Positions 4,173 to 16,664 of a stretch of 64,000 bases of DNA are shown one piece after another (positions within the stretch are counted from its first letter, which is position 1; every line of letters starts with the position of its first letter). The translations under genes were made by a program, and so were the position numbers. The notes beneath the pieces were generated by a model. That model was not told the origin of the DNA. It made no database searches and saw only the letters and a list, made by a program, of their open reading frames with translations. The stretch is taken from assembly GCA_964583165.1 (NCBI GenBank), contig CAZOVK010000002.1, positions 14,015 to 78,014 of the forward strand, read 5' to 3'. The stretch comes from an uncultured Defluviitaleaceae bacterium (lineage in GTDB: Bacteria; Bacillota; Clostridia; Lachnospirales; WRAX01).

Positions 4173-4421
4173 TGTGTTTTATTTGATACAAGGGATGAAG
4201 ATTTTGCGTCACTACTAAGTGGATTTGCCCCGTATCTATTCGAGGGCAGTTTGTCCGCAGACCCAGCAGTATGGAGTGGTTGGAAAGATTCCGTTAAAAA
4301 AGTTACAGACAGGGAATTTTTGACAACCCACGAGGCTCTTGATGTCACGCGTAAATTTATCATTTTTCACCATGATGCTGAACGCGACAGGGCGTACTAT
4401 CGTCCTGTTTCAGTCTGTTGA
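4173..4421 (+). pseudogene. Second immunity-like gene remnant
   Basis: Start-less frame CVLFDTRDEDFASLLSGFAPYLFEGSLSADPAVWSGWKDSVKKVT... The ADPAxWxxW motif recurs in small immunity-type proteins of Bacillota. Confidence 0.45.
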
Positions 4422-4593
4422 TAACCATTCGTTTACAATCCAAACATTGAATTTTGGTGACTAATATGGTATACTCGACAAAATAAAAGAAAGTCTAACT
4501 TTCTGTGAGCTTCAAGTTATTCTAATCTTACAATCGGCAAAAACAGGGAGGGTGTGTGGAGTTTAATTAAGTTATTCACGAAAGAGGAAGATT

Positions 4594-5073
4594 ATGGAAC
4601 CAGTGATTTTTATGCTTTGTTTAACACTGCATAATATCGAAGAGGCATTATGGTTTACCGAGTGGAGGATAAAAACAATGCCAAAAAGCCACAGGTCACC
4701 TCAAAAACTGCATTTTATTTTTGCAGTGTTAGGGGTGACCATATTAGGTTATCTTGCATCAGGGTTACGTATTATGTATCCTGCTAATACAATGATTGAA
4801 TTTTGTTATATTGGTTTTGTAGGAGCGATGCTTGTAAATGCAATAGTCCCTCATCTGTTGCTTACAATACGATACAAAAAATACTGCCCCGGGGTATTAA
4901 CAGGTTTTTTCCTATTAGTTCCATTCAACAGTATTATTCTATACAATGCTGTCACGTCATATTTGAAAGTAAGTGAGGTTTTAATAGCGACTATTGTTGT
5001 GGGAGTGGTGCTTCTTGTGTCAATCGCCGTTTTTGAAAGGATAGCAAAATTTTTATTAAAGGATTTGATTTAA
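4594..5073 (+). CDS. HXXEE-domain membrane protein
   Basis: LHNIEEALW motif, several hydrophobic helices, YCPGVLTG motif; upstream TTGAAT-17-TATACT. Confidence 0.8.
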   Translation: MEPVIFMLCLTLHNIEEALWFTEWRIKTMPKSHRSPQKLHFIFAVLGVTILGYLASGLRIMYPANTMIEFCYIGFVGAMLVNAIVPHLLLTIRYKKYCPGVLTGFFLLVPFNSIILYNAVTSYLKVSEVLIATIVVGVVLLVSIAVFERIAKFLLKDLI

Positions 5074-5087
5074 TTCTGTTTTCGTGA

Positions 5088-5528
5088 CTACAAATTACTT
5101 TAGCTGAATATCATCTTATGTTATTCGTAAATGCTGCGTTTGTCGAGGGTGATTGGATACCATTAGAAAATGCGGAAAGAGGTGAAGACATTCGCCCTAA
5201 CTACACATAGATGGAATACCCAAAACATGGTTTCTTTAGTGATAAAGTTTTCCCTATTATGTGTGAAGCAATACAAAGCATTGTTTTTGGCAACCACCGA
5301 TACAAAGGCCCCAAGCCGCTTTTTAAAATGATACACCAATATCTTTACAGCTTGGCGCATGGAGCGTATTCAAAGGAGTATTGGATTATGTTCATCTTTA
5401 TCAATGATTTCATCACCATACTTATATTGGCATACATTCAGGCTGCCGACAACGGTTATCGACAGCCTGAAACCGGTCTTATTCCACAGGTGTTTCATTC
5501 ATTAGAGCTCACATGCCCTTTGATATAA
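5088..5528 (+). pseudogene. Unidentified gene remnant
   Basis: The ORF at 5211 continues upstream in frame through a TAG at 5208-5210 (...FVEGDWIPLENAERGEDIRPNYT*MEYPKHGFF...). Confidence 0.3.
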
Positions 5529-5544
5529 GCACAAAACGAAAATA

Positions 5545-6477
5545 TCAGATATAATTCTTTATACACCCTTCCACCATGCTCCAAAACACATCAACATCAA
5601 TGCTCATTCCGACCTTGGTGTTATGTGGTTTTTTGAGCACATCAAGGACATCACAAACCGTACGCCCATAACATAATTCGCTTTTTATATCTATCGCTGT
5701 ATACATTGACTTTACCGAAAAGCAGGAAGGTTCTGTCAAATACGCGATACAGGTAGCGTCATGCAACGGGCCACCCGAAAGCCCATAGACTTCATTTTGT
5801 GTTTTCAGAACAAAGCGCATAATATCACAAAACAAAGCAGATGCCCTATTGCCGATAGACTCTATTCGAGTTATAACCTCTTTAGTGCATACTGTCTGAT
5901 TGGTTAAGTCCAACCCCATCATCACAATCGGTACACCGGATGTAAAAACCACATGGGCGGCCTCTGGGTCGGCATAGATGTTGAACTCAGCTGATGGCGT
6001 AGTATTACCGATAGAATAGGCCCCTCCCATCAATACAATCTCCGCAATTTTCGGTATGATACGTGGTTCAATACGCATTGCCATAGCAATATTGCTTAAC
6101 GGTCCAATCGGTACAATAGTGATATCCCCGTTTGATGCCATAAGGGTTTCAATTAGATAAGAAATGGCGTGTTTGTCTTCAATCTTTTTCTGTAGTGGCT
6201 CAAAAACAGGCCCGTCTAGCCCAGTTTCGCCATGAATGTTTGCGGCGACCACCTGTTCTCGAACCATAGGCAGTGACATGCCTGCATACACCGGCACATT
6301 GATATTCAGTGCTTGACAGACATTCAGACCATTTTGACAGGTCTTTTCAAGTGTCTGGTTCCCCGCAACAATGGTAATACCCAACAAATCAAGCTTTGGG
6401 TTATTAGCCGCCATCATAATGGCTATCGCGTCATCATGCCCCGGGTCACAATCAATGATGATTTTACGTTTTTCCAT
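5545..6477 (-). CDS. rihB: Pyrimidine-specific ribonucleoside hydrolase
   Basis: [66 protein letters not shown]; closely follows the E. coli RihB sequence as I recall it. Confidence 0.9.
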
Positions 6478-7588: not shown

Positions 7589-8449
7589 TCAATATCTTAA
7601 ATCCTCAATAAGATGATAAAGCTTGGAATAAAACCCGCGGATGTCAATACCTGCGTCAAGCCCCGATACTTGCCCGTCGCCTGTTTCTATAACTGTCCAA
7701 CTTCCGTCATCAAGTTGGGCGAAGTCAACAGTGTAGAATTGGCTGCTTAATTTTGGTATTCTACTCAAAAATTCTTTGGGCACACTGCCATTGGGCAATA
7801 AGTGATTTGTATGTGCAGAAACAGAAAGAACAAACCCTTTGAAATAGAAAACTCTATACTCACAAATCATGCCGTCAATCTTAGCGAAATTGACGAATTT
7901 TTTCAGTACGATACCCTTCGTATATAGCTCTCCGCGTAATTCCTTGAACCACCTCAGATAACCATCCAATTCCTCATTAGTCATTGCTGTATCCAATACT
8001 TTAAGGAAATGCTGTTCATTTACGGATTTCACATAGTCTTTTATTATGAATCTGTTAAAATTATTTCTTACGATAGACCAATCAACGTATTGACCATCTG
8101 GGTAGACCAATATTTCAGGCGTAAGACTTCTTATCACTGGGTACACATTAGGGAACTCATGGCAATATTCATATTGTTCTGGCGTATTGACGAGCGATAA
8201 ACCACTTGCCGATAGTTTTTCGTAAAGCGCCCTGTATTGTTCGGTTTTTAGCATCCAACCCCTATATATGCACAGCCCTGTTGAGTGTTGCTTAGGGTAA
8301 AGCTTGAGCTTACCACCGCTGATGAAATCATCATAATTGAATAGCAGTACGTTAAATTGCTCTGCCGCCGCTTTATATTCATTTTCATATGTACTGTCTG
8401 CTTTGGTCAAATCAAAAAAGTCGGCCGGGAATAAAATTGTAGCTCTCAT
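7589..8449 (-). CDS. ATP-grasp domain protein (R2K clade-like)
   Basis: IYRGWML, FIIKDYVKS, EYRVFY, FYTVDFAQLDDGSWTVIETGDGQVSGL; ATG at 8449 follows the GAGGTGG RBS. Confidence 0.8.
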   Translation of the reverse strand: MRATILFPADFFDLTKADSTYENEYKAAAEQFNVLLFNYDDFISGGKLKLYPKQHSTGLCIYRGWMLKTEQYRALYEKLSASGLSLVNTPEQYEYCHEFPNVYPVIRSLTPEILVYPDGQYVDWSIVRNNFNRFIIKDYVKSVNEQHFLKVLDTAMTNEELDGYLRWFKELRGELYTKGIVLKKFVNFAKIDGMICEYRVFYFKGFVLSVSAHTNHLLPNGSVPKEFLSRIPKLSSQFYTVDFAQLDDGSWTVIETGDGQVSGLDAGIDIRGFYSKLYHLIEDLRY

Positions 8450-8646
8450 TGTGCCTACCACCTCGGCAGTAATATTTGCACTTTTCAGTATACCATATCG
8501 TACAAGAAAATCAAATGATTTCAGTCTATGTAATGGCAACCGCAAAATGACATTACAGATGCTTATCTGTCATCATCGTTCAAAATTGAATACTGATGTG
8601 TTAGATAAGATTTGAAACTTAATTCAATGTGTTACAATCTGAAAAT

Positions 8647-8678
8647 AAAGCCATTGGGTATTTTCCCCAATGGCCTTT
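8647..8678. terminator. Intrinsic terminator of the 994-aa S-layer gene
   Basis: gccattggg/cccaatggc stem with flanking A/T runs. Confidence 0.7.
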
Positions 8679-8693
8679 GCCATAATATCCCTG

Positions 8694-11678
8694 CTATTTT
8701 GTTGCGTTCACATAATTCAAGAAAATCTGAGCTACTTCGGCTCTTGTGACTGTGCCTTTCGGGTTAAATAGATTGCCGCCGACGCCACTAATCAGCCCGT
8801 ATTTCTTCATATCCGAAACAGCGGTTTGCGCCCACGCGCTGAGACTTGAGTTGTCAGCGAATGGCTCATCGCTTGCGGCTTGGGGGAGCTGATTACCCTT
8901 GCTCTTAATGTAGTTATAAAACATCAGAGCCATTTGTTCGCGTGTAATTGTGTCGTTTGCGCCGAAATTGCCGTTGTTGTAACCCGTAAGTATGCCGTTT
9001 TTAGCCGCCCATGTTGCGGCTTGGCCGTACCACTCATCAATGTTTACATCATTAAACACTGATTCTGTATAGCCGCTAAGGTCAGCGTTATCAAGACGAG
9101 CCAAAACCGAAGCAAATGAAGCTCGCGTCATGGGAGTTTGGGGAGCAAATGTTGTTCCGCTAACTCCGCCAAATAACCCAGCTCTATAAACAGTCATTAC
9201 GGCGTTATAATACCAAGCCCCAACCTTTACATCACTAAACGGATTCTCTATTTCCGGCAACCGTTCTGTAGTCAGCACATACTTTGACGCATGGTCAAAG
9301 TCAAAACTGAACTTGCCGTTTTCAACCATGTAAGAACTGCGATACTCAAGCGCGTCTATTTTCTCGTTATAGAAATAGAGATACATGGTCATGCCGTTGT
9401 ATTTCGCGTCTATAGGATAGGTCAGCTTGCCCGTAAACGGCAGAGGTCCGCTATAAGTGATTTCTAGCTGGATAGCTTCTGTCCCCGCGGTCGTAACAAG
9501 GTTTGAGATGGGCGCTTGCTCAATCTCTGTCACTGTCAGGTTATAACCACCATTAGCAATGGTGCCACTGATACTCTGACCGTTAATTGTCCAGATATAT
9601 TTGCCATAATCCAGAACGGTATTGACATCTTTGCCTGTAGCCGCTTTAAGCACGTCTGCGGTTAGTTGATTTCCTACACTCATTGGTATGTTTACAGTGC
9701 CACCCGCGGGAGCCGCTATGATTTGTTGAGGAATGGTGTTCGTCTTTGTAGGCGATGTGATAACTACATTACCGCCGCTTCCGCCTGTGTTGCTGTTATT
9801 GTTGTTATTGTTATTGTTATTGTTGTCGTTGCTGGCCGTCCATTTAGCAAAGAGAGTTCTTGTGCTCGTTACGGTATCGGTTGAAAAATCCCACTGATTT
9901 GTGCAGGCGGCTTCTTTGAACCAACCACCAAACGTAAAATTGGTTTTTGTTGGGTCTGTGGGTTTGGTTATCTTTGAGCCCGAGGCGATATCGGTGATAG
10001 CGTCAACGGCACTGCCACCTTGACTGTCCAACGAAACAGAATAGAGTTCTTGGCTTGTGAGAGTCGCCGCATAGTCAGTTATATTGCCTGCATAGCTTTT
10101 TGTAGTTCCATCTGATGTTGTAATATTAGCCGTTGCCTTAACCGGGGTTGTGTCAGCTGCCCAAACATAGATAACGCCATCAGCAAAGCCGTTGACAATT
10201 GAGTCACCGGTGATAATATCATTGATACCATAAGCTGTTAAGGTTTCGGGTTTGTTTGAGGGTAAAATCGGGTTGCCGCTCGCATCGAGGATACTCAAAC
10301 TGTTCACAACCGCGCCCTTAATGTTATTACCGCTTGCATCTTTAACAGTGAGGGTATATTGTTTTGCTATGGTAGGCGTACCCGCATAATAATAGTCGAA
10401 AAATACATTGCCTGTGCCGGTAATACTTTTGATACTGCCGCCTAGAACACATATTTTGCTGCCAGTCACTGTGTTGTCTATTGTGTCAACCATACCGCCA
10501 TAAACAAAAATGGGAGAATAAGCACTATTGTTGGTTATTGTGCCTTTTACAGTACCGCTATAAATAATGAAACCCTTGTAACTAGCGGCCGCATGATTGA
10601 AATGACCGCTTGGGCCAACAACAATCGTACCGCCCCCATTTCTTCCGCTACTGATAGAATTTCCGTTAAGATAAATATACCCTAAATAGTCACTGGCGCC
10701 ATTATTAAGCGTTCCATTGACTATTAGCGTGCCTCCGCTGTTAGGCACTATATTACCGTTATCAGTTGTATTTCCGCTTATGAAGATACCTTGGTTTTCT
10801 GAGGTATTTGTATTTTCTACCAATCCACTTTCACCAATAGTGAGAGTGCTAAAGTTACCGACTTTGACTGCGCTTGAATTCCCAAGTGTACCATTTACAG
10901 TGAGCGTCGCAGAGTTGGTTGAATTCCCATGTAAATAAATATTACTGCCAGTCGTAGTCTTAACAATTAGAAGGCTGCCTGTCTCAACAGTAAGTGAGCC
11001 GCCCGCTACGACTTCAAGCGTACCCAAAACTGTAATATTGTTGGCGATGTTCAAGCCACTCGGTTTACCGGGAATAATCATTGCTTGGTCAATAGTCATA
11101 ACTGCGCCTGCACTGATTAATACTTGTGCGGCGTGTGTGTCACCTTCATTATTCATAATTGTAAATTCGTCAATCCTACCCGTTCCGACAGCAAAAGTGT
11201 TGTTTGTACGGGTACTGTCCTTCAATGTTATCGGGTTTTTGGTATTGTTAAAGATGATTTTAGAAGCCGAGTCACTAAAGCTGTCGTTATAAAGACTCAT
11301 GCCCTTGATGTCAATTTCTCCCCCAACAAGGTTGTTGGACGTAGTTGTAACAGTTACGGAACCGCCTTGACTGAAGTCAAATACAGGCGCACTACCTGAA
11401 CCTGTAAGTGTGCTGCCGTTTAAGTCAAGCCTAAAATCAAATGTCGGTGTAATACTGCCAGTTTCTGTAACATTGTATAACAACTTAATTGTGTCACCTT
11501 CGTCTACGACGGGGTCATCTGCGGATACCAACGCCGCGCTGACTGTTTCATAGTCTGAGCCAATACCGCCTACAGTTATAGTTTTGGGTGTGTTAGCCAT
11601 AACAGGCACAGTCACAAACGGCATTAAGCCCAATACCATTACTAAAGTGGTGAATAGGCTGAGAACTCGCTTTCTCAT
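8694..11678 (-). CDS. Secreted S-layer-anchored protein: signal peptide, beta-helix-like passenger, InlB B-repeat, poly-Asn linker, conserved pre-SLH domain, 3x SLH
   Basis: MRKRVLSLFTTLVMVLGLMP signal; PTKTNFTFGGWF...LFAKW B-repeat; FSDV..WYY, FAPQTPMTRA, ITREQMA and VTRAEVAQI SLH motifs. Confidence 0.9.
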   Translation of the reverse strand: MRKRVLSLFTTLVMVLGLMPFVTVPVMANTPKTITVGGIGSDYETVSAALVSADDPVVDEGDTIKLLYNVTETGSITPTFDFRLDLNGSTLTGSGSAPVFDFSQGGSVTVTTTSNNLVGGEIDIKGMSLYNDSFSDSASKIIFNNTKNPITLKDSTRTNNTFAVGTGRIDEFTIMNNEGDTHAAQVLISAGAVMTIDQAMIIPGKPSGLNIANNITVLGTLEVVAGGSLTVETGSLLIVKTTTGSNIYLHGNSTNSATLTVNGTLGNSSAVKVGNFSTLTIGESGLVENTNTSENQGIFISGNTTDNGNIVPNSGGTLIVNGTLNNGASDYLGYIYLNGNSISSGRNGGGTIVVGPSGHFNHAAASYKGFIIYSGTVKGTITNNSAYSPIFVYGGMVDTIDNTVTGSKICVLGGSIKSITGTGNVFFDYYYAGTPTIAKQYTLTVKDASGNNIKGAVVNSLSILDASGNPILPSNKPETLTAYGINDIITGDSIVNGFADGVIYVWAADTTPVKATANITTSDGTTKSYAGNITDYAATLTSQELYSVSLDSQGGSAVDAITDIASGSKITKPTDPTKTNFTFGGWFKEAACTNQWDFSTDTVTSTRTLFAKWTASNDNNNNNNNNNNSNTGGSGGNVVITSPTKTNTIPQQIIAAPAGGTVNIPMSVGNQLTADVLKAATGKDVNTVLDYGKYIWTINGQSISGTIANGGYNLTVTEIEQAPISNLVTTAGTEAIQLEITYSGPLPFTGKLTYPIDAKYNGMTMYLYFYNEKIDALEYRSSYMVENGKFSFDFDHASKYVLTTERLPEIENPFSDVKVGAWYYNAVMTVYRAGLFGGVSGTTFAPQTPMTRASFASVLARLDNADLSGYTESVFNDVNIDEWYGQAATWAAKNGILTGYNNGNFGANDTITREQMALMFYNYIKSKGNQLPQAASDEPFADNSSLSAWAQTAVSDMKKYGLISGVGGNLFNPKGTVTRAEVAQIFLNYVNATK
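9789..9830. repeat. (AAC/AAT)n triplet microsatellite encoding the poly-Asn linker
   Basis: gttattgttgttattgttattgttattgttgtcgtt encodes NDNNNNNNNNNSN. Confidence 0.7.
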
Positions 11679-11743
11679 GGTGTTAATTCCTCCTCCATTT
11701 TGTTTTTGTGTTGTAATTTATATGCAGCTGTTTCTCAAACTAT

Positions 11744-11777
11744 ATTATAAACCCCAACCTGTGACAAACCTGTGACA
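11744..11777 (-). promoter_or_regulatory. Activator-type promoter: tandem 11-bp boxes (TGTCACAGGTT x2), 6 bp, TATAAT
   Basis: Plus strand AACCTGTGACA at 11756-11766 and 11767-11777; ATTATA at 11744-11749. Confidence 0.75.
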
Positions 11778-11840
11778 AAACAGCCCTCAAATTGAGAATC
11801 TTAAAAATTTTTAAGAACTCAATAGCCGTTGTCACAGGTT
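11767..11840. repeat. 74-bp imperfect palindrome with 12-bp perfect outer arms and an 18-bp perfect core
   Basis: aacctgtgacaa (11767-11778) / ttgtcacaggtt (11829-11840); core tcttaaaaatttttaaga (11799-11816). Confidence 0.7.
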
Positions 11841-11893
11841 TTTATGCTTGTCGCTTATTAAACTACCTTACCGACATTTTGGCTGACATGGTT

Positions 11894-13861
11894 CTAATTC
11901 TGTTTGACCAAGCCAAAACTTATGCCGTCGCCTTGAAGTGATTTAGCGTTGATAGTGGCGACATATTCATCACCCGCCGAAAGGTTTTTCTCCTCTGTTG
12001 CGCTGGTTTCGCTGGCTTCTAAGAAGTTGCGTTCTGTGGCTGTGAAACTCAGAATACCATTTGCTGTTGCTGACATGGTTATCGTGTAGGTTTCATTCGG
12101 CGGTAAGTACAAAATGGTTTCGCCTTCATTCACACTACAAGCCGTAACCCCTAGGTATGTTTCATCCTCAATTACGATGTCGTTAAGGTGTGGCGTAATC
12201 TCTGCGCCGATAACCTCAATCACCTTTACGCCATTACTGTCAGTTACCATAACATTTGTCGGCGCCTTGATAATTATTACGCGATATGTGCCGTCGTTAA
12301 AGAATTCTTCTATGTTCGGTTCTTGCTCTTCGCCCGATTCAGCCGCAACAGGGTAGTTAGTTTCATCAAGCGACATAAGCCAAGCCAAACATACCGCTGT
12401 GAAATGTCCTTGAACTATACATGACGCGTTGAATATGAGCGTTAAAAGCGTGTTGACACCGAACGTGAAAATCACCTTAGATAGCATCTTGATTACCGCA
12501 AATACTATGCCCTTGACACAAGCTTCTGTGTAGGTTTCAAACGGAGGATATTTCTTAAAGGACTCAATCACTATTTTTGTAACTCGTTCAACAAACTTCT
12601 CTGGGTCGGGAGACTTCATCAACTCACGCGCAAGCTTCTCGAGGGTTTCCATTGTAAATAAATGCTTTACAGCATCGCTGTTGCGCTCGTCACATAGAAA
12701 ACTTACCAGGCTACGAATATGCGGCTGAAAATCGGCATGGTATTCAGGTAACGTAAACACCTCGGTCGCTATATTGCGGAACAAATCGTCTAAGAATATG
12801 CTCATAGGTCTGTTTTTACCTGACAAGTATTCCTCAAACTTGTCAATTACATAAAACTCCTTCGGATGCTCTATCTGCATGTATTTTTTCATGCACTGTC
12901 TCATCCTTTTAAGATATCTGTCATAAAACTTGGTGGTTACACGACTCGGCAACCCTTCATCTGTACCAAAGCGCGTGAATTCCCAATCTTTGGGGGCAAC
13001 CTTTGTAACGAAATCGTTAAAGTTGATTATGTTATGTATAACATTATAGCGAGGGTCTTTCGGGGAGATTGTTCTTGTTCTTTGAACACCGGCCGGCGTT
13101 TCAAATGTGTAGGCAAAGACATTAGAAGCAGTCTTTATAAGCGGCTTAATAAAGTTCTTTGAGTGTTCGTCGTTCAAGATGTCTACAATTTTTCCGGCGG
13201 CGAGGTTTGCTGTTGCAGCCCCACGTGAATAACCTACTATCCACAGCTTAATATCCTTGCCCGATAAAAGGCGGCTATTGGTGTTCAAGTATTTTGTAAG
13301 CTCGCCCACGACTATATCGCTGGATAAGTCAAAGCCATGGTGATAGTTATTGTTGTTTGGCGCCATCGTAAAGTTACCACCCCATTCGCGCTGATAACCG
13401 CCACCGCGAACACACACGGCCAAAACGAGTGATGTTTTATCGCCTGAAAACTGAATGGGCTTAAACGCGAACGAAACAGCCATCGAATCACACTGAGAAG
13501 GCTCATGGTAATAGTTACAAGATGTATATTGTAGAAAGTGAAGCGGTTTAAGCTCATCATACTTCACGTATTGAGGGTCAGAAGCTTGCCCCGTCAACAA
13601 ATATCTGACATTATCGTCTTGATACTTATAGTAATCACCCGTGCCCGGTTTTACACCAGCGGGGAAATAACTGAATGCTGACAGCGCGAGTACAAGACTC
13701 ATTGACGCAAGGTCATATTTGAAATCTGTGTTGCATGAGAAATATTCACTCTTAAAGATGTATGGAACGGAGTAATGACCGATACCAGCATCTTTGGCAA
13801 CGTGGTAAATGCCGTTAATTGTCATTTCTTCAGTAGTGATTTCATTCATGTTCTCTGACAT
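11894..13861 (-). CDS. Alpha/beta-hydrolase (lipase class-3-like); no signal peptide or SLH anchor
   Basis: WIVGYSRGAATANL nucleophile elbow, YTFETP, NIINFNDFVTKVAP. GGAGG RBS favours the ATG at 13861; the ORF track starts at 13876. Confidence 0.75.
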   Translation of the reverse strand: MSENMNEITTEEMTINGIYHVAKDAGIGHYSVPYIFKSEYFSCNTDFKYDLASMSLVLALSAFSYFPAGVKPGTGDYYKYQDDNVRYLLTGQASDPQYVKYDELKPLHFLQYTSCNYYHEPSQCDSMAVSFAFKPIQFSGDKTSLVLAVCVRGGGYQREWGGNFTMAPNNNNYHHGFDLSSDIVVGELTKYLNTNSRLLSGKDIKLWIVGYSRGAATANLAAGKIVDILNDEHSKNFIKPLIKTASNVFAYTFETPAGVQRTRTISPKDPRYNVIHNIINFNDFVTKVAPKDWEFTRFGTDEGLPSRVTTKFYDRYLKRMRQCMKKYMQIEHPKEFYVIDKFEEYLSGKNRPMSIFLDDLFRNIATEVFTLPEYHADFQPHIRSLVSFLCDERNSDAVKHLFTMETLEKLARELMKSPDPEKFVERVTKIVIESFKKYPPFETYTEACVKGIVFAVIKMLSKVIFTFGVNTLLTLIFNASCIVQGHFTAVCLAWLMSLDETNYPVAAESGEEQEPNIEEFFNDGTYRVIIIKAPTNVMVTDSNGVKVIEVIGAEITPHLNDIVIEDETYLGVTACSVNEGETILYLPPNETYTITMSATANGILSFTATERNFLEASETSATEEKNLSAGDEYVATINAKSLQGDGISFGLVKQN

Positions 13862-13909
13862 AATAAATACCTCCATAAGATTTTTGACGCTTCTATACGT
13901 CTAAGGCTG

Positions 13910-13943
13910 ATTATAAACTACAACCTGTGACAAACTCGCGACA
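13910..13943 (-). promoter_or_regulatory. Second activator-type promoter: TGTCGCGAGTT-TGTCACAGGTT, 6 bp, TATAAT
   Basis: Plus strand AACCTGTGACA 13922-13932, AACTCGCGACA 13933-13943, ATTATA 13910-13915; same spacing as 11744-11777. Confidence 0.75.
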
Positions 13944-13988
13944 AAAAGACAGATTGTCGAAATTTTTGTCTTATCCTATGTATGGTTT

Positions 13989-14801
13989 TCATTTTAAAGG
14001 ACGATTTGCCTCGATGATTCGGCGTTCAAGCGCGGCGAGTGTGAACTCTGCCCAACTATACTCGGGCATATATTCACATGTGTAGGCGTTGATGCCGCTA
14101 ATCTTCCACTCAAGAAAGTCATAATAATCACAGTCGAATTTTGACGTATCTACAGCCAAGGTGTTAAAACCTTTAACTACTATATAACTGGCGTTGACTT
14201 CTTTTAGTGTTGATATAAGTTCAGCGGTTATCTTGCGTAAGTAATTTTTACGCTTGCTCTCTTTATCGTCGTCATCCCAAAGCGCGGCTACTATTTGGGG
14301 CATAGTTAAGGTGACGCCACGTCTGTCTACAAGATACGCGAGCAACTCCTTTGATTTAGAGCGCTTGAAAATAACGGCCTTGCCGTCTACAAACACTTCA
14401 AACCCGCCAAACGTTCGAATCTTCACGCGAGAGCCACCGGTATCAATGGGGTTACGTAAATTCTCCATCGCCAAAAGAATCTCTTCCTTTGACGTTGGTT
14501 TCATCAAATAGCCGGTGACATATAACCTATGAGCGTCTACAGCATATTTTGAATATCCCGTAACAAAGATAATATTGGTTTTTGGCCGTATTTCCTTAAT
14601 CTGTTTGGCAAGCTCAAGACCGTTTGTTTCGGGCATTTCAATGTCTAAAAAAGCTATATCAATAGGGTTATCCCTGATATGATACAGCGCCTCGTCAGAA
14701 TCCATAAACCCTTTAATATTACACTGCGGGCAGGCTTCTCCTATTTGGCTTATCAGATTTAACAATACGAGCCGCTCGTCGTCAACTATGATGATATTCA
14801 T
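13989..14801 (-). CDS. Orphan response regulator: REC plus wHTH/SARP-BTAD-like output domain
   Basis: IIIVDDE, IAFLDIEMP, GYLMKP; output domain KIRTFGGFEVFVDG...SKSKELLAYLVDRRG...CDYYDF. Confidence 0.85.
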   Translation of the reverse strand: MNIIIVDDERLVLLNLISQIGEACPQCNIKGFMDSDEALYHIRDNPIDIAFLDIEMPETNGLELAKQIKEIRPKTNIIFVTGYSKYAVDAHRLYVTGYLMKPTSKEEILLAMENLRNPIDTGGSRVKIRTFGGFEVFVDGKAVIFKRSKSKELLAYLVDRRGVTLTMPQIVAALWDDDDKESKRKNYLRKITAELISTLKEVNASYIVVKGFNTLAVDTSKFDCDYYDFLEWKISGINAYTCEYMPEYSWAEFTLAALERRIIEANRPLK

Positions 14802-14917
14802 ACTTTACACCTACTAAATAGAATCCAAAACCAAACTGTTACATATTGAACGATTATAATCTACCTGTCAAATATATTCAATGATAAATTTTAGAGTAAA
14901 ACAAAAATGGACAAATA

Positions 14918-14953
14918 AAACCATCCCATTTGTCGACACAATTGAGATGGTTT
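14918..14953. terminator. Hairpin downstream of the ECF operon
   Basis: aaaccatc..ca.ttg / caattgagatggttt imperfect stem. Confidence 0.45.
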
Positions 14954-14980
14954 ACTGGTAGGCTGATTGTTAAAGCGACT

Positions 14981-15130
14981 TCAAAGCCTACAATACTTGC
15001 TCAATAGCTTCTTGCCGTCGGTTATGTTGTACGGCATCTTGTTTCAGATGGAGTAGCTAACGATTTTGCTTGCCACAATCGGGATGCTATTCCCTATTAC
15101 TTGATGATGTATACTGCTGACGGAAAAAAT
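14981..15130 (-). pseudogene. Possible C-terminal scrap of a C5 DNA methyltransferase
   Basis: ...SSIHHQVIGNSIPIVASKIVSYSI*NKMPY... resembles motif X (QxIGN/ExVPP); short, with an internal stop. Confidence 0.25.
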
Positions 15131-15454
15131 TCATTGTAGGTTAACAAAACGCCCTGCAACACCGATAAGTGTACCCAATACAACAGACATCATAATCATA
15201 GGAGGTAAAGATTTTTTATCCTCTTTAGAAACAATGATAATAACAGGTATAGAAAGCAGGAGTGTAATCACGCCACCCTTTAGCCACCACGCCATACCAA
15301 ACAAATCGGTGTTGAAGATGATAAAAGGCATAGTAAAATAAAAGGTAAAGGCAGATGAAATTGCATATTTGTCAAGCTTCATTTTAAGCATTGGTAAAAT
15401 GTCAACTACACCTGCGATAAGTCCAATCAGTGCCGTCAATAAAAATTCTCTCAT
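15131..15454 (-). CDS. Small multi-pass membrane protein
   Basis: Four hydrophobic segments; ATGA overlap with the upstream gene; GGAGGAG RBS. Confidence 0.7.
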   Translation of the reverse strand: MREFLLTALIGLIAGVVDILPMLKMKLDKYAISSAFTFYFTMPFIIFNTDLFGMAWWLKGGVITLLLSIPVIIIVSKEDKKSLPPMIMMSVVLGTLIGVAGRFVNLQ

Positions 15455-15824: not shown

Positions 15825-16664
15825 TCACGCTTCAGACTTGATAGTGTTCATGTATTTGGAAGTGAGTAGCTTTTCAAGAAAACCTCTGATAACTTTAGGA
15901 GAATGGTATTTAGGCAGGCTTTCAAAGACATGCGATAAATCCTCCATCTCTTCCATAGCCTGTGTAAATACAAATGTTACTGAGTTATCAAGCTTTTCCA
16001 AATCGCTGTATTCCAGCTTCTTAGGGTTTAATCGTTGACTCTTGATTGCATATCCCACGCGCTTTTTACAATCACAGCTTCCTTTGCCTGCCAAACCGCA
16101 ATAGTCACTTAAAAACTCTCCTACCTTTTTACGTATGCGTGAAAGGCGCTGACGATAGGTTTCGGGGGTAATGCCTAGTATCTCTCCACAGACATTACTA
16201 TTGGCTTTGAACATTACCCCTAATACATAGATACAACGGCTTTCAGGGTCAAGACATTGTAACATTACGTTTGTGCAGGACAGCTTTAGTTCCTCAGCCA
16301 AGATGTTTTCGTCAACACTCAGTGTTAAATCTTCGGTGTTAGGGATAAAGCCTGTGTTAATATCTTCTGCATAAATCTCAAAGCTAAGGGGTCGTTGGGC
16401 AAAAATTGACTTTTTGTAATTGATTAAGTAATTGATGGCAATACGATAAACCCAAGTTGAAAATGCACTCTCCTTGCGAAAGGTAGATAACTGAGTGATG
16501 ATTTTGATGATGATTTCTTGTGCCCCGTCCTCAGCGTCGTATGGGCTTCCAAGCATACGCAAGGAAAGGTTGTAAATCATATCTTCTACGCTGATGATAA
16601 GGTCTTGAAGTGCTTGCCTGTCACCGCCTACAGCTTTATCTACCCATTCGTTCTCATTATTCAT
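15825..16664 (-). CDS. ECF sigma factor with a Cys-containing C-terminal extension
   Basis: Region 2 DAEDGAQEIIIK...FSTWVYRIAIN; region 4 ILGITPETYRQRLSR; extension YCGLAGKGSCDCKKRV plus ~60 aa. Confidence 0.85.
   Translation of the reverse strand: MNNENEWVDKAVGGDRQALQDLIISVEDMIYNLSLRMLGSPYDAEDGAQEIIIKIITQLSTFRKESAFSTWVYRIAINYLINYKKSIFAQRPLSFEIYAEDINTGFIPNTEDLTLSVDENILAEELKLSCTNVMLQCLDPESRCIYVLGVMFKANSNVCGEILGITPETYRQRLSRIRKKVGEFLSDYCGLAGKGSCDCKKRVGYAIKSQRLNPKKLEYSDLEKLDNSVTFVFTQAMEEMEDLSHVFESLPKYHSPKVIRGFLEKLLTSKYMNTIKSEA

Follow-up and report, generated by a model that had tools for sequence, protein, structure and literature searches.

The locus considered here raises the question of how two consecutive genes are switched on from promoters that have a TATAAT −10 hexamer and no −35-like element. 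It occupies positions 8694–14801 of a 64000-nt stretch of DNA (the window) from an uncultured Defluviitaleaceae bacterium (contig CAZOVK010000002.1 of assembly GCA_964583165.1), and it comprises three minus-strand genes: in the order of transcription, an orphan response regulator of 270 amino acids (aa; 13989..14801), a Lipase_3-like serine hydrolase of 655 aa (11894..13861) and a surface protein of 994 aa with three SLH domains (8694..11678). These gene calls agree with those of a preliminary description made from the letters alone, which had proposed that the regulator co-activates the two genes behind it as a mini-regulon. We consider it probable that the adjacent regulator is a SARP-like class-II activator of both promoters, acting through 11-bp boxes. 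The mini-regulon finds computational support in the association of such boxes with the regulator family as a whole and in the occurrence of similar targets (Lipase_3 and Flg_new proteins) at other loci of that family.

In front of each of the two genes, the preliminary description had reported a doubled 11-bp repeat followed after 6 bp by TATAAT, and this arrangement was found exactly where it had been placed. Read on the minus strand, the promoter of the SLH gene is TGTCACAGGTT TGTCACAGGTT GGGGTT TATAAT (11777..11744). Its 22-bp box is a perfect tandem (11756..11777) of a distal (11777..11767) and a proximal copy (11766..11756), and it is followed by the spacer GGGGTT (11755..11750) and, 6 bp past the box, by the −10 hexamer (11749..11744). 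The promoter of the lipase-like gene is TGTCGCGAGTT TGTCACAGGTT GTAGTT TATAAT (13943..13910, minus strand); here the distal box TGTCGCGAGTT (13943..13933) is identical to TGTCACAGGTT at 8 of 11 positions, the proximal box (13932..13922) is an exact copy, and TATAAT (13915..13910) again lies 6 bp past the 22-bp box (13922..13943), across the spacer GTAGTT. A −35-like hexamer 16–18 bp 5′ of the boxed TATAAT is absent from both promoters. The likeness of the two is limited to the boxes and the −10 hexamer while the flanking sequences differ, which argues for selection on these elements rather than for a recent duplication.

The exact 11-mer TGTCACAGGTT has 4 copies in the window, all within 11756–13932, and 9 across the 131 contigs (2.51 Mb) of the genome; when up to 2 mismatches were allowed, 28 occurrences were counted in the window versus 15.7 ± 3.6 in shuffled sequences. 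The genome-wide scan that had been suggested in the preliminary description was run for two boxes with at most 5 mismatches in total and a period of 10–12 bp, followed by a −10 hexamer. In the 2.51 Mb, only the two sites of the window have TATAAT at the right distance.

The same description had taken the 11-bp period as the signature of a winged-helix activator of the OmpR/PhoB or SARP type. This was supported on two sides, since the output domain of the regulator is SARP-like by fold and by profile, and the box layout is enriched beside its homologues. The regulator consists of a receiver (REC), an OmpR-type winged helix and a short tail of about three BTA-like helices. Its receiver (Pfam Response_reg, E = 5.6e-21) is closest to those of the LytR/BtsR type, with D7/D8 of the acidic pocket, the phospho-acceptor D53, T81 and K101 invariant in an alignment of 29 sequences. 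Pfam recognizes the output part only below its gathering cut-off (Trans_reg_C, E = 0.0013, 19.2 bits versus 26.2) and over residues 148–183 only, and gives no BTAD match at E ≤ 0.01. When the C-terminal 148 residues were searched as a profile, on the other hand, AfsR (SARP domain, E = 0.0018) and EmbR (E = 0.002) ranked above OmpR-type regulators. Homologues of similar length are many, at about 45–59% identity; F131, G132, F134, C224, D225 and W250 are invariant in their alignments, and the tail of the window's regulator carries the conserved CDYY...GEYM..YSWAEF. One homologue (P0075, 47% identity) bears the name 'two-component SAPR family response regulator' in JGI annotation.

Structure prediction led to the same family. 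AlphaFold2 modelling gave the entire protein a predicted local distance difference test score of 89 and the output domain one of 95, and the PDB folds that the output domain matches best are those of AfsR, namely 8hvr_I in its promoter complex (E = 2.3e-6) and 8k60, and of EmbR (2ff4/2fez). The match to EmbR reaches a template modelling (TM) score of 0.77 over about 169 columns, whereas OmpR/PhoB DNA-binding domains align over only ~85 columns; TM scores normalized to the targets are 0.33–0.45. Whole-protein searches matched DrrB, DrrD, VanR and CosR. On these models, the output domain is SARP-like with a truncated BTA part.

In SARP sites the direct repeats are spaced by 11 or 22 bp, and 8 bp separate the 3′ repeat from the −10 element; the afs box spans 22 bp from −40 to −19, its centre being at −29.5 when counted from the transcription start; two AfsR protomers sit on it side by side, each touching the first 8 bp of one repeat (PMC10936776). 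Provided that TATAAT is at −12..−7, the 22-bp boxes of the window occupy exactly −40..−19.

The regulator family was then taken as the basis of a comparative analysis covering 80 loci (0.587 Mb) with homologues of the regulator in species-representative genomes, out of more than 500 genome loci. These were scanned for tandem 10-mers (at most 1 mismatch between the copies) followed within 3–9 bp by a −10-like hexamer. A period of 11 bp gave 25 sites, versus 5 in the window's own genome of 2.51 Mb. The other periods yielded 2 sites in the regulator loci and 10 in the own genome (period 10), 7 and 17 (period 12), 1 and 2 (period 13), 4 and 7 (period 14) and 7 and 7 (period 15). Per Mb, this makes ~43 period-11 sites for the regulator loci and 2 for the own genome, a ~20-fold enrichment. 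No general period-11 excess was seen across the own genome; the signal is peculiar to loci that encode this regulator family.

When aligned on their −10 hexamers, the 25 sites fell into one register, TTTG-N7 / TTTG-N7 / 8 bp / −10, in which TTTG(T)(T/C) opens each 11-mer, although this consensus had not been used in selecting them. The window's sites share this register and read in it as TTTGTCACAGG TTTGTCACAGG TTGGGGTT TATAAT, with 8 bp between box and −10. At 16 of the 80 loci a same-strand site lies within 300 bp 3′ of the stop codon of the regulator gene, just as in the window. Two homologues from the window's order show such sites as well: in G039, TGTGTCACGGT TCTGTCACGGA followed by 8 bp and TAAAAT stands directly 3′ of the regulator homologue, and in G001 the site is 5′ of it. 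The genes behind the family sites include one for a 1240-aa Lipase_3 protein (L111) and one for a 754-aa Flg_new protein (L069, Robinsoniella), and further ones for a leucine-rich-repeat protein, a secreted amidohydrolase, small secreted proteins, single-domain receivers and a SpoIIE phosphatase. A site in Clostridioides difficile HC132 (L037, JABBZI010000002.1, positions 4863–4898) consists of two copies of GATGTGCTTTA and TATATT after a regulator homologue of 47% identity, and precedes a gene for a 779-aa dCache-GGDEF-PAS protein; response-regulator control of this diguanylate cyclase is predicted from the position of the site. The recognition helix adds an anecdotal observation: the three regulators with GTCAC-type boxes (the window, L041 and L016) have L/V-R-K in it, and R-N or R-T stands at the same place in regulators whose boxes are of the GTTGCAC or GCAACAC kind.

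Together, the pieces suggest how the promoters might work. The regulator would be phosphorylated on D53, two protomers would settle side by side on the two 11-bp direct repeats at about −40 to −19, and the bound regulator would take the place of the absent −35 element and bring sigma-A RNA polymerase to TATAAT, so that the genes of the Lipase_3-like hydrolase and of the SLH-anchored surface protein would be switched on jointly. The regulator gene has an ordinary sigma-A-type promoter of its own, TTGAAT-17-TATAAT (14853..14881, minus strand; 10/12 in a consensus scan), which is independent of a box and sits past the hairpin that closes the upstream operon of an extracytoplasmic function (ECF) sigma factor. 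The regulator would accordingly be present constitutively and the signal would reach it through a kinase encoded elsewhere. Around this promoter (14833–14870, minus strand), TTTGACAGGTA was noticed 3 bp 5′ of the TATAAT and TGTAACAGTTT (14843..14833) just 3′ of it; these out-of-register box-like sequences could reflect autoregulation or chance, 2-mismatch matches occurring at ~1 per 6 kb.

Several observations weigh against this assignment. In the AlphaFold2 models only 3 helices (45–50 residues) follow the wing, versus 7 in the BTA domain of AfsR, where they cover residues 120–270 and helices 3–7 form the sigma-R4 'chair' and the surface for the alpha subunit's C-terminal domain (alpha-CTD) (PMC10936776). 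Because helices 3–7 are missing here, these contacts would not be formed in the same way, and the contact with RNA polymerase must, if the models are right, differ in detail from that of AfsR. The distal box of the lipase promoter is only an 8/11 match, and a conventional reading of the SLH promoter, as TTGTCA-17-TATAGT with 10/12 consensus matches, is possible too. Two full-length paralogues of the regulator are present in the genome as possible binders of the boxes. A crude Mantel test of DNA-binding-domain against box similarity in 22 loci was not significant (p ~0.26). Finally, no orthologous locus with which the window's boxes could be compared was found in the databases searched.

The paralogues bear on the alternative that survives best, although we regard it as unlikely, namely that the boxes are true activator sites bound by another protein, either one of the paralogues or an unrelated factor. 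Both paralogues are REC-SARP-like and 45% identical to the regulator (C1:50123–50917 and C19:18302–19099 in the genome's contigs), and beside neither of them was a box found. Their recognition helices, however, are strongly unlike that of the window's regulator, and a box directly 3′ of the regulator gene, as in the window, recurs in 16 of the 80 homologue loci, which favours the adjacent regulator as the binder.

If the adjacent regulator is the activator, its kinase has to be sought away from the locus. The preliminary description had noted the lack of a cognate kinase nearby, and indeed none lies within 8.7 kb; the only HATPase_c domain on the contig (window 23518–23799) is part of another operon, which includes a LytTR regulator of its own. 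The closest homologues of the regulator (54–56% identity) have an adjacent PF06580 kinase on the 5′ side and neighbours unlike those of the window; such a PF06580 (LytS/YesM-type) kinase is adjacent in loci L017 and L018. The genome has two PF06580 kinases. One is directly followed by the C1 paralogue; the C19 paralogue is an orphan. The other, at C14:21729–23195 (plus strand, PF06580/HATPase_c), has no regulator beside it and is convergent with the gene of an 821-aa secreted protein; no box was found beside it. We infer that this orphan LytS-type kinase is a candidate partner of the window's regulator, in a genome that is 94% complete, and that the signal may enter there. The C14 kinase is a candidate partner for the orphan C19 regulator as well.

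A hairpin between the lipase-like and SLH genes is the centre of a second and still less probable alternative, according to which the repeats are not activator sites at all: the SLH gene would be served by the ordinary TTGTCA-17-TATAGT promoter just mentioned, and the 11-mers would be arms of a hairpin or terminator, or a functionless local duplication. In that promoter the second candidate −10, TATAGT (11744..11739), lies 17 bp past the TTGTCA of the proximal box, and it may be a source of basal expression. A third exact copy of the box is present in inverted orientation at 11830–11840 (plus strand), and together with the distal SLH box it forms the paired arms of a long RNA hairpin of ~76 nt (11766..11841, minus strand). 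The region 11750–11900 folds on the minus strand with −47.3 kcal/mol (z = −5.0; 0 of 200 shuffles were equally stable). At the lipase promoter, however, there is neither an alternative −10 of this kind nor a hairpin, and yet the distance from box to TATAAT is the same; moreover, about 25 unrelated loci show the same architecture next to regulator homologues, with differing box sequences. These facts are better accommodated by activator sites. The hairpin is probably a terminator or stabilizer of the lipase transcript, or else the inverted copy could be a third regulator site in opposite orientation. As the distal SLH box is also a hairpin arm, one copy of the box may serve both the hairpin and the activator site. 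No terminator and no significant structure was seen in the stretch that separates the regulator gene from the lipase promoter (z = −0.4), so that read-through from the regulator gene is possible, and an Rfam search of 8400–15300 gave chance-level matches only.

Least probable of all is that the two promoters serve the ECF-type sigma factor whose gene lies 1 kb upstream (15825–16664) and whose operon is the next transcription unit in that direction, or are controlled by Spo0A, whose 0A box, TGTCGAA, is matched at 5–6 of 7 positions by TGTCGCG and TGTCACA; both readings were discarded because of the type of promoter and the way in which the boxes vary from locus to locus, for the −10 is a perfect sigma-A TATAAT rather than an ECF-type element, the upstream element is a tandem repeat rather than a single −35, and the architecture travels with the REC-SARP-like regulator while its sequence varies by locus, which is unexpected for a universal Spo0A box or for this sigma factor.

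The lipase-like gene starts with ATG at 13861, with the ribosome-binding site GGAGG 7 nt upstream, and its product has a Lipase_3 domain (Pfam E = 4.7e-6) and a GYSRG nucleophile elbow. It had been described as unanchored, and indeed a signal peptide and an anchoring domain are both absent. In this it differs from most of its homologues, which are mostly 700–1150 aa long and whose precomputed Pfam domains include VWA, SLH, FHA and cell-wall-binding ones. Its best relative among 5.8 billion proteins is 34% identical; 17 genomes from the same family yielded no orthologue, and the best match within the order (51% identity) is on a truncated contig and has no box upstream. The 994-aa protein has a signal peptide, a beta-helix-like N-terminal region, the Listeria-Bacteroides repeat Flg_new (E = 1e-16), a poly-Asn linker and its three SLH domains at the C-terminus (E = 1.5e-33).

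Some further sites resemble the boxed promoters. The exact pattern of two copies of TGTCNCNNGTT with N6 and TATAAT gave 0 matches in species-representative genomes and 1 in metagenome contigs, in an unrelated context (L036, OCVV010914306.1, positions 800–833). There, a perfect doublet of TGTCCCATGTT, which differs from the window's box at 3 positions, precedes GGGTGT and TATAAT directly 3′ of a tRNA gene array and ~200 nt 5′ of a two-gene oxidoreductase operon of a low-GC organism; no regulator is visible on this 3.4-kb contig. In the window's own genome, the promoter GTTTTAAGGTT GGTTTAAGTTT T GGGGTT TATAAT (C15:4139–4173, plus strand) lies 5′ of an open reading frame (ORF; 4206–6416) for a 736-aa lipoprotein. 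It shares with the SLH promoter the 14-mer TTGGGGTTTATAAT, of which these are the only 2 copies in the genome, and it is a possible target of a paralogous regulator. At C35:2961–2995 (plus strand) the tandem ATTCAAAGGTA AGTCAAAGGAA is followed by 7 bp, TATAAT and a 28-codon ORF (MSTIKNAMKMGQLKRPFGAPCILLSDYP), so that an 11-bp-phased box possibly drives a small peptide here.

If SARP-like activation by the adjacent regulator is the right reading, the window is a compact instance of an orphan regulator with a minimal regulon of two promoters, and it supplies a rule by which direct targets could be recognized from sequence: a doubled TTTG-N7 that ends 8 bp before the −10 and is mostly found right behind the regulator gene. 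The rule would cover many uncharacterized response regulators of gut and rumen Clostridia, including the C. difficile homologue in front of the diguanylate cyclase gene. Since the predicted targets include many secreted or surface proteins, surface remodelling in these bacteria may have one of its main switches in this family. SARP-type activation would thereby be extended beyond the actinobacterial antibiotic clusters and coupled to two-component phosphorylation, the new element being a receiver-controlled and BTA-truncated form of it outside actinobacteria. A wider formulation is put forward only tentatively, and we would sooner doubt it than rely on it: that REC-SARP-like regulators of gut and rumen anaerobes form a large class which activates −35-less promoters with a stump of the BTA domain, by a recruitment unlike that of PhoB or of full SARPs, and that in this genome a split pair of C14 kinase and orphan regulator controls the two-gene surface and hydrolase module.

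In a full-text literature search, no paper was found that characterizes a REC-SARP-like (COG3947/'SAPR') regulator, its binding site or its regulon, and the comparison has to be made with better known relatives. With the SARPs (AfsR on the afs box of afsS, ActII-ORF4, DnrI, RedD and, by structure, EmbR) the window's system shares a winged helix with helices packed as at the start of the BTA domain, and two 11-bp direct repeats that would replace the −35, with 8 bp between the 3′ repeat and the −10 when read in the family register. It differs in that a receiver is found at the N-terminus, whereas in SARPs the winged helix is N-terminal and is combined with NOD/TPR, FHA or nothing; in having ~3 of the 7 BTA helices and no Pfam BTAD match; and in that it occurs in Clostridia and other gut anaerobes and has surface or secreted proteins, instead of antibiotic clusters, as its predicted targets.

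With OmpR/PhoB regulators and the pho box it has in common the combination of receiver and winged helix, tandem repeats with an 11-bp period over the −35 region of an otherwise −35-less promoter and, presumably, activation triggered by phosphorylation. In contrast to them, its Trans_reg_C match is below the cut-off, a conserved C-terminal helical module of ~50 aa (CDYY...YSWAEF) is added, the receiver is LytR/BtsR-like, and the family pairs with PF06580 (LytS/YesM-type) rather than with EnvZ/PhoR-type kinases. Domain order and length match those of COG3947, 'two-component response regulator, SAPR family' (REC, winged helix-turn-helix, BTAD), which is an annotation label only. The closest likeness is to unnamed REC-SARP-like regulators of Firmicutes, about 260–275 aa long and built of REC, winged helix and a CDYY...GEYM..YSWAE tail. 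The window's regulator fits among them, although it does not have the adjacent PF06580 kinase of other members; −35-less promoters of the type TTTG-N7 twice, 8 bp and −10 lie near these regulators, and the window has two of them, directly downstream.

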